From: a virus
Length of the DNA stretch: 64,000 nucleotides
Strand: one strand, 5' to 3'
IMG/VR virus record: IMGVR_UViG_3300037247_001314
Span: 42,805 to 106,804 of that record
Shown here: positions 42,728-55,982 of the stretch, one piece after another
Position numbering within the stretch: the stretch's first letter is position 1
How the letters are laid out: each line of letters opens with the position of its first letter
Notes under the pieces: model-generated
What the model saw: the letters and a program-made list of their open reading frames with translations, nothing else
Told to the model about the DNA's origin: nothing
Database searches by the model: none
Translations under genes and position numbers: made by a program

Positions 42728-44092
42728 TCAGCCGCGCATTTGTGTCTGCAACTGCTGGAGGCCTTGGGGCACCTGCTGTTGTTGCTGCTGGGGTTGTTGC
42801 ATGTAGACCTGTCCCGGCGCAGTCGTGCCTGTGTGGCCTGGACCGTGTTGGAACGTCGTCGCCACAGGTTGCCCTTGTTGTGCTGGGTAGATGCCCCCAG
42901 GAGCCGGCTGCTGCGGGGGAAGTGCGGCATAGACCGGCTGACCTGGAGGCTGGCCCATGGTGGTCGGGTAACCACCGTAGGGATTTTGTGCTGGCGCGTT
43001 TGGCGCGGGCGAGTAAGCAGGTTGCTGCTGCGGAACCTGCATTTGTTGTTGGCCCTGCGGGAGCAGCATCGGTTGCTGCTGCGGCAACCCACCTTGCTGG
43101 CCTTGTGCAGCCAACTGTGCTTGTTCTTGCTGCACGAGCGCTGGCAGCTGCTGCGGAACAGGAAAGCCCATCGCAATGATGGCCTGGTACTGCTCGCCGA
43201 GCGTCGGCTGCTTCACAAACTTCGTGAGGTCGTACAAGTTCTGGAAGGCTGGATAGAAATACTGGTCGAGGGGCCGCGGATCGAGGTCGTCGATCGACCA
43301 GTCGATGTCGAAGTTGTTGGAGCCCTTCTTCTTTTTCTTGAGGATGAGCGGGCGGCCGTATTGCGGGTGCACGATTCGCGCGAGCGTTCGCGTTTTAATC
43401 TTCTCCCAAATGTCGGTGTGCAGCCCGCCAGGAGCTCGGAAGAGCCACGGAACAAAGCGACCGTCTGGAGTGAAATGTGACTGGTAATGCTCCAGCAGAA
43501 GAATCTGGTAGATGGCTCGTTTGCTGAGCTTGCCCGCGTCCTGCGCTTTCTTGGCGTCAACCTCGCTGCCGGTCTTGAACATCGCATTGCGTGCAGCACA
43601 GACCCAGCACCCGTTGCCTGCGCAAGTGATGCCTGTGCCCTGCGGCTTCTCCTGCGTGCGGTAGAAATGCGACGGGTCGTCGACGTAGTTGAGCATTCCA
43701 GCCGCCCACGGGGGGAGCAGCCAGATGACGTAGCTCGCCTCGTAGCCGATAGGAACGTTCGCTCCCCACTTCGGCTCGCCAGCGGGGCCAAGAGGTGAGA
43801 ACCAATGCAGGTCGCCGCCGCCACCTTGGCCCGAGCGGATACGGGCGATGCGAGCTTGTTCCTCAGCCGCACGAGCGAACGCCTGCTGCACAAGCGCGTC
43901 GTCGGGCATATGGATGACGGGCATCATCCCCGCTTGCTGTTGGGGCTGTTGCTGCACCTGCTGAACGGGAGCCCACACGCCCGCCTGAGTCTGCTGCATC
44001 GGCACGGTCGCAGGCTGCGTGGGTTGCTGCTGCTGTGGATAACCGGTCGCGGGAGCACCCGGCTGGGGATACGGGTTGTAAGGCTGATTCAT
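42728..44092 (-). CDS. Putative ssDNA-binding protein (gp32-like) with Gln/Pro-rich termini
   Basis: WLLPP...SHF...C...CWVC, HPQYGRPLILKK; lies between uvsY-like and recA. Confidence 0.65.
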   Translation of the reverse strand: MNQPYNPYPQPGAPATGYPQQQQPTQPATVPMQQTQAGVWAPVQQVQQQPQQQAGMMPVIHMPDDALVQQAFARAAEEQARIARIRSGQGGGGDLHWFSPLGPAGEPKWGANVPIGYEASYVIWLLPPWAAGMLNYVDDPSHFYRTQEKPQGTGITCAGNGCWVCAARNAMFKTGSEVDAKKAQDAGKLSKRAIYQILLLEHYQSHFTPDGRFVPWLFRAPGGLHTDIWEKIKTRTLARIVHPQYGRPLILKKKKKGSNNFDIDWSIDDLDPRPLDQYFYPAFQNLYDLTKFVKQPTLGEQYQAIIAMGFPVPQQLPALVQQEQAQLAAQGQQGGLPQQQPMLLPQGQQQMQVPQQQPAYSPAPNAPAQNPYGGYPTTMGQPPGQPVYAALPPQQPAPGGIYPAQQGQPVATTFQHGPGHTGTTAPGQVYMQQPQQQQQQVPQGLQQLQTQMRG

Positions 44093-52327: not shown

Positions 52328-52709
52328 GTCGTGCGCTCCGTTTCTTCAAGTCAGCTTGATGTTGGGCCTTGAGCCGTTGCAGCTGGGCAATGGCGTTGTC
52401 AATCTCATCAAGCCAAAGCCTGTCATCCTTGAAGATGGGTGCGCCCACCGCGGACCCACCAGCCACTTGCTCGTCGACAACGTAACCCGTCTTCTCGACA
52501 TTGCGCTGGCTGTTGTACGCGTGCACAACTTGCATGAGCGCGTCGACGCCGGTGGGCCAAGGAAGTCCTCGCACCAGCGTCGGAGCGTGGAACACGAGGT
52601 ACGTGCGGTCACTGCCCTGCAGAAACCTAATCAGATGTTCGGGGTCGCTGATAGCAACCGCTTCCTGTGCTCGGGCTAGAGCGCGTGCATCAACGGTAGG
52701 CATCACCAT
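52320..52709 (-). CDS. Hypothetical protein
   Basis: GGAGG SD. Confidence 0.6.
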   Translation of the reverse strand: MVMPTVDARALARAQEAVAISDPEHLIRFLQGSDRTYLVFHAPTLVRGLPWPTGVDALMQVVHAYNSQRNVEKTGYVVDEQVAGGSAVGAPIFKDDRLWLDEIDNAIAQLQRLKAQHQADLKKRSARRG

Positions 52710-52723
52710 AAAATCCTCCAGAC

Positions 52724-52770
52724 AAAAAAAGAAAAAATGCCCGCCGCACCGGGAGCCAGCGCGACGGGCG
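52724..52770 (-). terminator. Intrinsic terminator after SF2 helicase
   Basis: GCCCGTCGCGCTGG-ctc-CCGGTGCGGCGGGC followed by ATTTTTTCTTTTTTT. Confidence 0.75.
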
Positions 52771-52797
52771 TCAAGGGCTCTTACTTACGAACAACAC

Positions 52798-55398
52798 TCA
52801 ACGCGGCCGGTTTGCAACCCAGGCGCCAAAAAAAGATGCGTCCTCAAGAACCTCAACGTTAAATGTAGCTTCCTTCCAGAACACACTCAACCGCTCAAGG
52901 CTGTGATCCATAAGGGTTCGGTGGTGTCTATCCGAGAAATCAACGAAGAGCGCGCGGGTCTTACCAGGCACTGCGGTGCACGCTCGATACGCAGCTTGGA
53001 TGAGAGGGACTTCCGCTTTCTGGCCTGGGCAGTAAACACAGGCGGCAGTGTTTGGCAGGTCAGTGCCCTCTCCGACCATGCTCGTGCCGATTAGCACCTG
53101 GATGGCCGAGCTCTCTGCAAAGGTGTCGATGATGTTTTGACAAATGTGTGCTGGCCGATTGGTGCTCACAAACTCCACAGCCCGAAACTGCCTACCTGCT
53201 GGCGTCGGGTACTGATGCTTAAGTCGATCCAGAATAGTGTTGCCTTGCTCTTTTGTCCCGACGAGGACGAGCACCTTGTGCCCGTGGTGGGTGAGCACCT
53301 GTGTGGCCCATGCAGCGAGGTCAGTGCGATATTCATGTTGATAGATGCCGTTCTTGCCACAACCCGTCTGGAACGTGGGGCCGCCCTTCGCCCGAGGACC
53401 GTTGACCGGTAAATAGCAAACGTCGGTGGGCACGAGGTAGCCACGCTCGACGAGTTCTTCGGCCGTGACCTTGTAGATGGTCTTTGAAAGAACGGCATGC
53501 ATCGCAAGTGCGTCCTCGCCCGAGCGAAAGAACGTCCCCGTCATGCCGTAGCGATAGTAGATGCTCGGACACTTGGCGACGAGCTCGTGGTAGGTCTTCG
53601 CGGCGCTGTTGGAGACTTTGACCCCTTCTGCGAAATAGTTGTGGTCGTGCTCTACTTCGAGATCGTAAACCGCAGCACACGTCGACGGGAAAATCTCGAC
53701 GCTGAGCACCTCACCCGCAACCACTCGGCTGCCGCCTCGACTTGATTCGCGGGAACACGAATCACCGCCCAACCGATCGCCAGAAGAAAAGCATCCTTCC
53801 TGTCGTCGACATCCCGCCGATTCTGATGGGACGACCCGTCGATTTCCACCGCAACTTTCCGAGAGAGCAGCGCGAAATCGAGGCTGTACCAAGTCGCTCC
53901 CTCGCCCTTTTTGTTCCCGGTCTTCACCACCACCTCGCGCGCGAAACCCAGTGGCTTGAGGATCTTCCAAGCTTTTCGCTCTGACAAAGTTGGGCCCGAA
54001 CCTTTGCCTCCTGTGCCACGCCCGTAAGCCACCATTCGCCCGTCCGCTATCGCTCGCTGGATTCCCGCCGTCATTCGCGCACGACTGGTGGGGGAACGCG
54101 TTTGATTTTTCTCGCGCATGCGCTCGCTGAGTTGCTGTCGATAACTCTGATTCTCGGAGCGGACCTTCATCGCGCGTCGATGCACCGCGGGGTTCGCAAA
54201 AGGATTCCGCCCCGAACACGTCAGCACGTGTCCCCCCAGCGATTTGAGCTTCACCTCGACGCCGCAAATAGGGCACGGCTTGGTTTTCTTCTTGGGGCCC
54301 TGGCAAACCCTCTCGTGCAGGAGAAACGGACCGCGCCGCTTGATTTTCCGGCCGCACTTCGAGCACGTGAACGATGCTCCCAACTCGAAGATCACCGGCG
54401 CGTTTTTTACCATCTGAGGTGAAGACTTCGTGCTCACTTGTAACCTCCATCGTTCCTACCGTCGTGCCAATACGCAACATCGTTGGTGGCGGCGTGCGCT
54501 TCCAGACGCGCGCAACCTTACGGGGAACTACCCCTTCCGCCGTATCAGCAAATACTTCATCACCCGCCCGCAGGCATTGAATCTCTCGTGGACCAGTAGG
54601 TGTAGTTACCAGCGTGGTGGGACTAAAGCAATGGTGAAACTCGTCGATGAAGAGCATGTCCCGCGTCGCGAAAAACTCGGGGGGAAGGTCTCTTGCCGTC
54701 GCTGCCGTGCAAATGACAACACGACAGTGCACCTCGCCACGCCAGTTGCTCGCGCCAACTAGGTGCCCAACGTAGTTCTCACCGAAAAATCCTTTGAACG
54801 CGCGCACGGTTTGTTTGACGATGTTTGTCGTCGGAGCAATCCAAATAGCGGGCAGCGCTAGCCGCCGTTGGATTTCAATACCTGTACGAGTTTTTCCCGA
54901 GCGTGGAGGCATATCGAGAACGCCACGTCCTTCTCGGAGCGCAGCCTCCACAGCAGCTAGCTGGTAGTCGCGGTCGACGACAGGTGTGTGGAGGTCGGGA
55001 AGGCCGTCAAGCGGAACCTCTCTGCTGTCGTCGATAGAGAACGCAAAGCCATAGCGCTGGCAAACCCACTGGCAAAGGTCGAGCAAACCCGTTGGGGTTA
55101 TCCCTGGTCCTTGAGCGGGAAAGCGCGTGAGATGGATCCAGCCGTCCCAGTAGTCTTCGCCGATGTACGCTTCAGGAGGCTTCCAACCCTCCGTCTGCTG
55201 GAGCGCAACGTCAGACGGGTATCTGGTGTGGAAAGCGAGAAGCTGCTGCAAGTAGGGAGGGGCTCCGTAAATCCGACAGAAGGTGTTGCCTACTTCGAAA
55301 ATCGTTTCAGAAAAACCGTCCGCAAGGATGGGCGCTGGAGCCCCGAGGCCGAAGGCCGAGGGTGCTCCTAGCGCTTGTTGGTTTCCTGCCCAGTTCAT
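52798..55398 (-). CDS. SF2 (UvsW-like) DExH helicase containing an intein
   Basis: RDYQ, PPRSGKT, DEFHH|intein|SAA, GMTGT, EGTDLP, QAAYR. Confidence 0.92.
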   Translation of the reverse strand: MNWAGNQQALGAPSAFGLGAPAPILADGFSETIFEVGNTFCRIYGAPPYLQQLLAFHTRYPSDVALQQTEGWKPPEAYIGEDYWDGWIHLTRFPAQGPGITPTGLLDLCQWVCQRYGFAFSIDDSREVPLDGLPDLHTPVVDRDYQLAAVEAALREGRGVLDMPPRSGKTRTGIEIQRRLALPAIWIAPTTNIVKQTVRAFKGFFGENYVGHLVGASNWRGEVHCRVVICTAATARDLPPEFFATRDMLFIDEFHHCFSPTTLVTTPTGPREIQCLRAGDEVFADTAEGVVPRKVARVWKRTPPPTMLRIGTTVGTMEVTSEHEVFTSDGKKRAGDLRVGSIVHVLEVRPENQAARSVSPAREGLPGPQEENQAVPYLRRRGEAQIAGGTRADVFGAESFCEPRGASTRDEGPLRESELSTATQRAHAREKSNAFPHQSCANDGGNPASDSGRANGGLRAWHRRQRFGPNFVRAKSLEDPQATGFRARGGGEDREQKGRGSDLVQPRFRAALSESCGGNRRVVPSESAGCRRQEGCFSSGDRLGGDSCSRESSRGGSRVVAGEVLSVEIFPSTCAAVYDLEVEHDHNYFAEGVKVSNSAAKTYHELVAKCPSIYYRYGMTGTFFRSGEDALAMHAVLSKTIYKVTAEELVERGYLVPTDVCYLPVNGPRAKGGPTFQTGCGKNGIYQHEYRTDLAAWATQVLTHHGHKVLVLVGTKEQGNTILDRLKHQYPTPAGRQFRAVEFVSTNRPAHICQNIIDTFAESSAIQVLIGTSMVGEGTDLPNTAACVYCPGQKAEVPLIQAAYRACTAVPGKTRALFVDFSDRHHRTLMDHSLERLSVFWKEATFNVEVLEDASFFGAWVANRPR
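53608..54630 (-). mobile_element. Intein (341 aa) inserted just after helicase motif II
   Basis: Block A CFSPTTLV, block B VTSEHEV, block F VYDLEV, block G NYFAEGVKVSN followed by Ser+1. Confidence 0.92.
53652..54437 (-). CDS. Zinc-finger plus DUF559/Vsr-like endonuclease in an alternative frame inside the intein
   Basis: GGAGG-N6-GTG start; CSKC...H...C, CPIC...H...C; PTLSERK...YSLDFA...VAVEIDGSSH...DDRKDAFL...GWAVIRV. Confidence 0.85.
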   Translation of the reverse strand: MSTKSSPQMVKNAPVIFELGASFTCSKCGRKIKRRGPFLLHERVCQGPKKKTKPCPICGVEVKLKSLGGHVLTCSGRNPFANPAVHRRAMKVRSENQSYRQQLSERMREKNQTRSPTSRARMTAGIQRAIADGRMVAYGRGTGGKGSGPTLSERKAWKILKPLGFAREVVVKTGNKKGEGATWYSLDFALLSRKVAVEIDGSSHQNRRDVDDRKDAFLLAIGWAVIRVPANQVEAAAEWLRVRCSASRFSRRRVLRFTISK

Positions 55399-55556
55399 TG
55401 CTAAAACCTCGTCAAGACAAATGTCTTTGCTCTTCTTCTTTAAGCAAATCTATTAGTTAAACGATCAGCTAGTTATTAGTGGCGCAGGCAAGGAAAGGAC
55501 AAAAAGGGAAATCCCGTTCTGTCCCATCCCGGAAAGGACGTTTTGTCCCATCCGGG

Positions 55557-55982
55557 TTATTCCTGCGGTGGAGGGTCAAAAAGGCCACCTTCCTGCACTG
55601 CGAGCCAAGCTTGGGATAATGTTTGTTCGCGGACGTGAACAAACAGCGCGGTACCTCCGCCAGTCCGTTTGCACGTGCGCCGTTCAATCAGCTCTAGCTT
55701 GTCCAGACGCTGCAACACTCGGTAAGCAGCCTTGCGACCCAACCTGAGTTCTTGCCACCAGCGCGCGTAGGTAGCCTCGACAAAAACTTTGTTGTCGCGC
55801 AGTTCCCACACGTGCTCACTTCGGCGAGCTCGCGCGAGGTTGTCGAATAGTTGCGTCAACACGAGCGCATCGAGGTGTTTGCGTTGGCAGATGTCGAGGA
55901 ATCCAATGCTGAACGAAATGCGTCGGTTCGCTTCGGTTTCGTTGAGCAGATCGGTCATCGACGAAGAGAGATGTTTGTCCAC
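55557..55982 (-). CDS. Short wHTH protein resembling a replication-initiator N-terminus
   Basis: ATYARWWQELRLGRKAAYRVLQRLDKLELIERRT; AGGAGG SD. Confidence 0.6.
   Translation of the reverse strand: MDKHLSSSMTDLLNETEANRRISFSIGFLDICQRKHLDALVLTQLFDNLARARRSEHVWELRDNKVFVEATYARWWQELRLGRKAAYRVLQRLDKLELIERRTCKRTGGGTALFVHVREQTLSQAWLAVQEGGLFDPPPQE

Follow-up and report, generated by a model that had tools for sequence, protein, structure and literature searches.

Organization of the helicase locus

The window analysed here comprises 64,000 nucleotides (positions 42,805 to 106,804) of the IMG/VR virus record IMGVR_UViG_3300037247_001314, a single contig of 106.8 kb with 58.5 % GC from a marine sediment metagenome. 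At 52798..55398 on the minus strand, which carries all features of the locus described below, lies the gene of a phage helicase of superfamily 2 (SF2; ResIII/DEAD type). Its motif II is interrupted by an intein, and nested in the +1 frame within this intein is a second gene, coding for a putative homing endonuclease. The helicase open reading frame (ORF) is free of stop codons throughout its 866 codons and matched the Pfam families ResIII, DEAD and Helicase_C as well as DNA helicase in PHROG. Intein-less orthologues have 526 amino acids, compared with 866 for the helicase of the window including the intein. The N-extein (residues 1-256; 54631..55398) ends at motif II with DEFHH, the intein covers residues 257-597 (341 amino acids; 53608..54630), and the C-extein (52798..53607, stop codon included) begins with SAAKTY. 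The coordinates of the intein coincide with those proposed in a first-pass annotation made from the bare sequence.

The junctions read DEFHH|CFSPTT upstream and VKVSN|SAAKTY downstream, vertical bars marking the boundaries. The nucleophile of the intein, Cys257 (Cys1), directly follows DEFHH, a position at which intein-less orthologues run straight into AAAKTY. The T-x-x-H signature of block B is present as T-S-E-H in the window and as T-S/D-E-H in all intein-bearing relatives, and the terminal Asn is followed by Ser as +1 nucleophile. The splicing blocks, described as normal in the first-pass annotation, are intact and conserved among the relatives. The unusual ending of the intein, Ser-Asn instead of His-Asn, had been recognized as well. 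It recurs in the close relatives obtained from a metagenome scan, namely L122, L123 (the contig encoding P0001), L124 and the partial L127, all with the common insertion site DE[F/W]HH|C...SN|S, and in the proteins P0007, P0013 and P0015, whereas the wider family ends mostly in His-Asn. Ser-Asn is accordingly a conserved trait of this subfamily rather than decay. In intein-bearing alleles the first residue of the C-extein is Ser (SAAKTY), in all intein-less orthologues it is Ala or Gly (AAAKTY, GASKTY). As the +1 Ser occurs only together with the intein, either the nucleophile travels with the intein or the gain of an intein requires it.

An AlphaFold2 model of the whole helicase separated the intein into three parts by predicted local distance difference test scores (pLDDT). 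Residues 257-353 and 555-597 were modelled confidently as beta-rich structures (pLDDT about 85-93), while residues 354-554 stayed below 50 throughout. The first part is the N-terminal splicing domain (54340..54630; pLDDT about 90), with 45-65 % identity to intein-bearing relatives; the last, with blocks F and G and the end VKVSN, is the C-terminal splicing domain (53608..53736; pLDDT about 85-93), with 34-71 % identity. Between them the helicase frame encodes a stop-free spacer (53737..54339) without amino-acid constraint. The middle of the helicase frame, described earlier as Arg/Ser/Gly/Pro-rich nonsense, is indeed rich in R (14.6 %), G (14.1 %), A (11.2 %) and S (10.7 %). Pfam matches of the intein were Intein_splicing with 30.9 bits (gathering threshold 35.8; E=2.8e-7) and Hint_2 with 21.9 bits (gathering threshold 28.4; E=2.5e-4).

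The nested gene (53652..54437; 261 codons, 786 nt) is offset from the helicase frame by 961 nt (mod 3 = 1), that is by +1. The first-pass annotation had read it as a protein with two zinc fingers and a DUF559/Vsr-like nuclease, and the ORF, the fingers and the Pfam match were all found. A profile search, suggested there as a check, aligned residues 181-236 to DUF559 (PF04480) with 41.1 bits, above the curated cut-off of 20.6 bits (E=1.8e-10). Alignments revealed two beta-beta-alpha zinc fingers of the C2HC type (54216..54374), one with C25, C28, H41 and C45, the other with C55, C58, H70 and C74; in the predicted structure both form a hairpin plus helix, and they have weak matches to C2H2 finger proteins. 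The AlphaFold2 model of the nuclease (mean pLDDT 81.9) consists of the two fingers, long helices forming a linker and an alpha/beta nuclease core of residues 151-236 (53730..53987; pLDDT about 96). In 64 aligned nested ORFs the core residues D187, E198, D200, H204 and D211 were invariant and K214 nearly so. Foldseek ranked 3r3p (I-Bth0305I) first and 3hrl (DUF559) second, with Vsr (1vsr/1cw0) lower, at E-values from 4e-3 to 0.3. A PDB sequence search with the nuclease found no more than weak hits to C2H2 zinc fingers and one, also weak, to the DUF559 protein 3hrl (E=0.057). No further copy of the nuclease or of the intein was present in the 106.8-kb genome.

Double coding of the intein

Over the 786 nt of the nested gene, the nuclease frame contains its own stop codon only, the helicase frame none and the third frame 11. 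Two frames open for about 260 codons had been pointed out before, and resampling gave the expectation for this pattern: with the nuclease protein held fixed and its synonymous codons redrawn from the codon usage of the exteins, 13.7 stops were expected in the helicase frame of the window, and none of 5000 resamples was stop-free. A stop in the helicase frame can arise only where a nuclease codon ending in T precedes a codon starting with AA, AG or GA. Codons ending in T occupied 0 of 59 positions before such codons, but 45 of 201 elsewhere. The same resampling predicted 18.6-19 helicase-frame stops for the corresponding genes of the Vibrio phages CP-T1, 1.194.O and K391, and 11.3 and 12.6 for L122 and L123, respectively; again none was seen. 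The helicase frame is under selection against stop codons.

A comparison of the window with L122, L123 and L124 located the amino-acid constraint. In the middle of the insert, identity was 0.57-0.66 in the nuclease frame and 0.23-0.34 in the helicase frame, the latter on a level with the 0.21-0.31 of the third, non-coding frame. At the ends of the insert, which overlap block B or block F, the nuclease frame reached 0.26-0.63 and the helicase frame 0.35-0.65, the latter equalling or exceeding the former in most pairs. Nucleotide divergence at nuclease codon positions 1, 2 and 3 was about 0.35, 0.33 and 0.57. The nested ORF is intact in all four, at amino-acid identities of 51-63 %. From the frame identities and the third-position bias it follows that each stretch of DNA is under amino-acid selection mainly in one frame, in the middle that of the nuclease. 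In the other frame, the avoidance of stops is the sole visible constraint. A spacer that lacks amino-acid constraint and is nevertheless stop-free must be translated and removed with the intein. We conclude that the double coding is real and maintained by selection.

Putative translation start of the nuclease

The putative start region of the nuclease (54435..54448) consists of a perfect GGAGG (54448-54444), a 6-nt spacer and a GTG codon (54437-54435), exactly as had been described. Six codons 5' of the GTG, a TAG (54456..54458) closes the nuclease frame towards the N-extein. The putative Shine-Dalgarno (SD) motif and the start codon are embedded in the codons of intein block B, M-E-V-T-S-E-H in the window and (M/L)-E-V-T-(S/D)-E-H in the relatives. 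The start codon stands in the same alignment column in four of four cases (window, L122, L123 and L124), as GTG, GTG, GTG and ATG, with GGAGG or GAGG 6 nt upstream. The GTG of the window exists only because the Ser codon of block B is AGT, a choice made for 9.9 % of the Ser codons in the genome; this is a signal at a synonymous site. Among 65 non-redundant nested ORFs, the first start had an SD-like motif before it in 40 %; start-like codons taken as controls from the +1 frame of these host genes had one in 8.5 %. The nuclease is most likely translated from its own GTG, independently of the helicase frame, and its dose may thereby be uncoupled from splicing.

Distribution of the intein

The closest helicases in a set of 5.8 billion proteins have 501-527 amino acids and are free of inteins. 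Four of them (P0003, P0004, P0005 and P0006) share 60-79 % extein identity with the window and run through the insertion site as DEFHH-AAAKTY. Intein-bearing helicases are more distant, with extein identities of 37-52 %. The exteins of P0015 are just 37-40 % identical to those of the window, while its splicing domains are 65-71 % identical. This sporadic distribution, at odds with extein similarity, suggests an element that moves between alleles, the pattern being read from the alignments. Base composition, taken as a test for a foreign origin, gave a GC content of 0.583 for the intein, equal to that of the exteins (0.579 and 0.570); as the intein also contains one copy of the genome-wide TCCAGAC motif, composition does not tell it from its surroundings.

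An orthologous helicase of 840 amino acids, P0067, has no intein in motif II and carries a different one in the Walker A motif (PPR|C...HN|SGKT), with an endonuclease region of the Hom_end type (PF05203). Together with the inteins of motif II, this shows one helicase family invaded at two sites by different elements.

The wider family

The nuclease alignment served to retrieve 118 related loci from genomes in IMG/VR and GTDB; queries with single proteins had returned nothing. In 80 of the 118 loci a host ORF of 600-1758 amino acids contained the nuclease ORF in its +1 frame, and in no case in the +2 frame. Fifty-two host ORFs, that of the window and 51 from related loci, were searched with profiles, and 47 matched both Helicase_C and Intein_splicing (E<=1e-3 for the latter). 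The layout is not unique to the window; it prevails in a large family of phage helicase inteins. Insertion sites were mostly DE|C...HN|C or DE|C...HN|S, in a few cases DEAH|C, DEGH|C or DEASR|C. In the subfamily of the window, the intein is inserted three codons downstream of the main family site, at DExHH|S.

The family includes isolate phages. The Vibrio phages CP-T1 (gp10), 1.194.O (NVP1194O_69) and K391 (VPHK391_0081) have an intein with a nuclease ORF of 249-261 codons in the +1 frame (L001:2929-3678, L002:3213-3998 and L003:3345-4130, respectively). In GenBank, their host proteins are labelled 'putative helicase' (gp10), 'coil containing protein' (NVP1194O_69) and 'DNA helicase' (VPHK391_0081), and the nested nuclease genes are unannotated.

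Other arrangements of the same nuclease family were observed beside the nested one. Two helicase-like hosts with DE|C...HN|CQD inteins (L021:2343-4832 and L051:2289-5087) encode in frame a Vsr/DUF559-like nuclease that lacks the zinc fingers; they are canonical in-frame versions of the nuclease family of the window. L004 and L065 have a single frame that runs as one fusion through N-extein, N-intein and nuclease. On the AT-rich viral contig of L004 (2553-4852), the insertion site is DEFHH|C as in the window and the fused frame is closed by a stop codon; C-intein and C-extein are encoded apart from it, in an ORF overlapping the 3' end of the nuclease by about 120 nt. L004 is a fractured, split-intein form of the element in the window.

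Nucleases nested in the +1 frame were also seen in inteins whose host genes are not helicases or encode other ATPases (L018, L077, L010 and L072). Two such host ORFs, judged by sequence probably L018 and L077, match DNA_pol3_delta2 and resemble clamp loaders, with the site DE|C...HN|CH. Of the others, one DEASR|C site resembles the Walker B motif of a terminase, and one DEAH|CIS site is RecQ-like.

Two properties bear on the origin of the arrangement: the phase is always +1, and in distant members the stop codon of the nuclease is formed inside the codons of block F (...E-V-E being read as ...K-stop), which argues for common descent. On these grounds, the chances appear evenly balanced that the sense-strand +1 Vsr/DUF559 gene is the dominant, ancient and unannotated state of phage motif-II helicase inteins and goes back to a single overprinting event. 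In that case the unit of intein and nuclease would have moved as a whole between the neighbouring sites DE|C, DEAH|C, DEASR|C and, in the subfamily of the window, DExHH|S, where the ribosome-binding site and start of the nuclease coincide with the splicing motif most conserved in the intein. A second frame free of stops across roughly 260 codons is impossible by chance, hence a stepwise origin is needed. It could have led, for example, over fractured or in-frame intermediates such as L004, L021 and L051. A simple invasion does not explain the origin of the stop-free frame, as about 11-19 stops would be expected there.

Proposed mechanism and alternative explanations

Very probably, the locus is a mobile unit of intein and homing endonuclease in motif II of a phage SF2 helicase, with two genes sharing DNA in two frames. 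The helicase frame would be read through from the N-extein and the N-terminal splicing domain over a disordered spacer of roughly 200 residues into the C-terminal splicing domain and the C-extein. With Cys1, T-x-x-H, a terminal Asn and Ser in position +1, the intein would act as a class-1 intein that excises itself together with the spacer, joins DEFHH to SAAKTY and restores the helicase. Read one base later, the spacer DNA is a separate gene whose product presumably binds DNA with the fingers and the helical linker, followed by the nuclease of the Vsr/DUF559 type. This product is most likely a free protein of 29 kDa made from GGAGG-N6-GTG on the helicase mRNA, and it most likely cuts intein-less helicase alleles, the repair of which would copy the whole unit into the new site (homing).

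Several observations weigh against this interpretation. The penultimate His of block G is missing, as the intein ends in Ser-Asn, and the profile scores of the intein stay below the gathering thresholds; splicing competence is suggested by the conservation of the blocks and the intact helicase. A penultimate His is common in inteins, but not obligatory, and inteins without it are known to splice. The Foldseek E-values of the nuclease are weak, with 4e-3 as the best. The conservation of SD motif and start codon is confounded with the selection on the codons of intein block B. No sigma-70-like promoter was detected in 52600-55700 or inside the helicase gene in a scan for this one promoter type, so that the nuclease is most likely carried on the helicase mRNA; no RNA run was listed as holding this stretch. 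The sporadic distribution could in part reflect precise loss of the intein and not its gain.

Among the alternatives, a relic fares best, although we consider it unlikely: the nuclease would be no longer made or active, and the element would effectively be a mini-intein with a long spacer, inherited vertically. Homing endonucleases commonly decay once they are fixed, according to the homing-cycle model discussed in a preprint (bioRxiv 10.64898/2026.09.14.751524). Vertical inheritance of a decayed gene is, however, difficult to reconcile with an ORF intact in the window and its three close relatives at 51-63 % identity, with a divergence biased to third positions and with invariant catalytic residues. 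Moreover, P0015 resembles the window more closely in the intein than in the exteins, and the closest helicases lack the intein, which indicates a recent transfer.

Internal initiation, which we prefer for the synthesis of the nuclease, would be dispensable if a programmed +1 ribosomal frameshift yielded a fusion of N-extein, N-intein and nuclease. The constant +1 phase fits such a shift, and the natural relatives L004 and L065 encode fusions of this kind in one frame. But the TAG six codons before the GTG restricts the shift to 18 nt, and no known +1 shift motif was found in these 18 nt by eye, a formal shift-site scan not having been made. The position of the start codon in one alignment column together with the SD-like motif, and the roughly five-fold enrichment of SD-like motifs across the family, also speak for internal initiation, which leaves the frameshift quite improbable.

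An intein that does not splice would leave the helicase either inactivated or functional with an insert of 341 residues, its frame being kept open for another reason. The lack of the penultimate His and the sub-gathering Pfam scores point in this direction. Cys1, T-x-x-H, the terminal Asn and the +1 Ser are nevertheless all in place, and Ser-Asn is conserved in the window and the seven relatives named above (L122, L123, L124, L127, P0007, P0013 and P0015). An insert of this length within the catalytic motif II should interfere with the ATPase site. The exteins are 60-79 % identical to intein-less orthologues and have kept all helicase motifs. A loss of splicing is very unlikely on this evidence.

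Hardly conceivable is an artefact in which two compensating sequencing or assembly frameshifts hide a nuclease that is truly in frame, the outcome named in the first-pass annotation as fatal to its proposal and excluded here: the contig was assembled from one metagenome only, with a depth of about 8x, but the Logan contigs of the probable source run, from the same data with another assembler and so not fully independent, contain no differing letter and no indel, the same +1 offset occurs in the isolate phages CP-T1, 1.194.O and K391 and in 80 other loci, and an artefact would not clear all of the roughly 14 stops expected in the helicase frame.

Comparison with known systems

Actinophage inteins with the endonuclease in a separate frame or strand have been reported in a preprint (Gosselin, Arsenault and Gogarten, 2025, bioRxiv 10.1101/2025.01.02.630785). 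The host genes code for polymerase, capsid, terminase and thymidylate synthase, and the cases include an endonuclease VII-like ORF in frame 3 as well as LAGLIDADG and VSR-like ORFs on the antisense strand. They share with the window a contiguous intein, an open host frame and an endonuclease that forms a second ORF between the splicing blocks. Also comparable is the proposed origin, a free-standing endonuclease gene invading an intein, with a sporadic distribution that suggests ongoing transfer. The window differs by a sense-strand VSR/DUF559-like ORF in the +1 frame with zinc fingers and by its location in motif II of SF2 helicases; the hosts of window-type elements are uncultured phages, Vibrio phages and prophage-like loci instead of actinophages. 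An out-of-frame endonuclease in a cyanobacterial dnaX intein is described in a 2026 preprint. This system likewise has an overlapping second endonuclease ORF in a functional intein; alleles with and without the intein occur side by side, and secondary invasion of a mini-intein is proposed as its origin. It differs from the window in orientation, in host gene and in its endonuclease family, given as LAGLIDADG in the 2025 preprint.

Vsr-like endonucleases have been associated with inteins before, in fractured genes, where a free-standing Vsr-like endonuclease gene lies between the halves of a split intein (Dassa et al. 2009, PMC2677866). As in the window, these endonucleases are tied to inteins in phage genes of DNA metabolism, possess their own translation signals and overlap with their 3' end the coding start of the C-intein. 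In fractured genes, a stop codon ends the N-intein ORF, the halves are joined by trans-splicing and the overlaps measure 6-69 bp; the window has a contiguous intein without a stop and an overlap that extends over the whole gene of 786 nt. With its stop after the N-intein and a separate start of the C-intein, the relative L004 belongs to the fractured genes, unlike the window.

For the fold of the nuclease, the nearest precedent is I-Bth0305I, an EDxHD homing endonuclease encoded in a group I intron of recA in phage 0305phi8-36 (Taylor et al. 2011, PMC3239194; PDB 3r3p). In structure it matched the nuclease core best (Foldseek probability 1.00; template modelling score 0.59 on the target), and it demonstrates the use of a Vsr-like fold for homing. 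The identity is about 21 %, the host element is an intron and not an intein, and the N-terminal DNA-binding part is different. Hidden out-of-frame HNH endonucleases of the ShiLan type in phage methylase genes provide a further parallel (Arsenault et al. 2025, PMC11855218), with a homing-type endonuclease in a second frame of a stop-free host frame. There, the nuclease is of the HNH type, no intein is involved and the host protein retains the insert as a loop (PMC11855218).

The principle of out-of-frame intein endonucleases was published in 2025-2026, and the gain from the window alone is consequently modest. The combination of nuclease, frame and host found in the window is not among the published cases, and no paper found in our literature search described helicase inteins with a Vsr/DUF559 gene on the sense strand in the +1 frame. 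Particular to the subfamily of the window are the shifted insertion site, the Ser-Asn end and the start signals inside block B. Loci annotated as a lone 'helicase', e.g., CP-T1 gp10 and K391 VPHK391_0081, reveal a class of homing endonuclease genes that is missing from phage annotation. A stretch of DNA with amino-acid selection in one frame and stop avoidance alone in the other offers a clean natural system for the evolution of overlapping genes. Within one nuclease family, overprinted, in-frame (L021, L051) and split (L004) forms occur side by side; such forms are the intermediates proposed in models of endonuclease gain by inteins and of the origin of split inteins. For applications, the splicing halves seem to tolerate a disordered spacer of 200 residues, and the nucleases are candidate site-specific enzymes for helicase motif II DNA.

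Genomic context

The helicase gene belongs to a replication module that also encodes a DNA polymerase of family A, a DnaB-like helicase and a protein resembling SbcC. Inside the gene, Rfam gave no match, neither a group I intron nor another RNA element. Just 3' of the helicase stop codon, a GC-rich terminator-like hairpin of 14 pairs with a T run occupies 52739..52769 (minus strand). A sub-threshold Rfam match to ctRNA_pGA1 at 52727-52797 on the minus strand (26 bits, threshold 45) is most likely merely this hairpin. The 7-mer TCCAGAC/GTCTGGA is strongly over-represented: the window contains 124 occurrences (e.g., at 53366 and 54501) and the 106.8-kb genome 204, a density of about 1.9 per kb; one TCCAGAC copy lies inside the intein.

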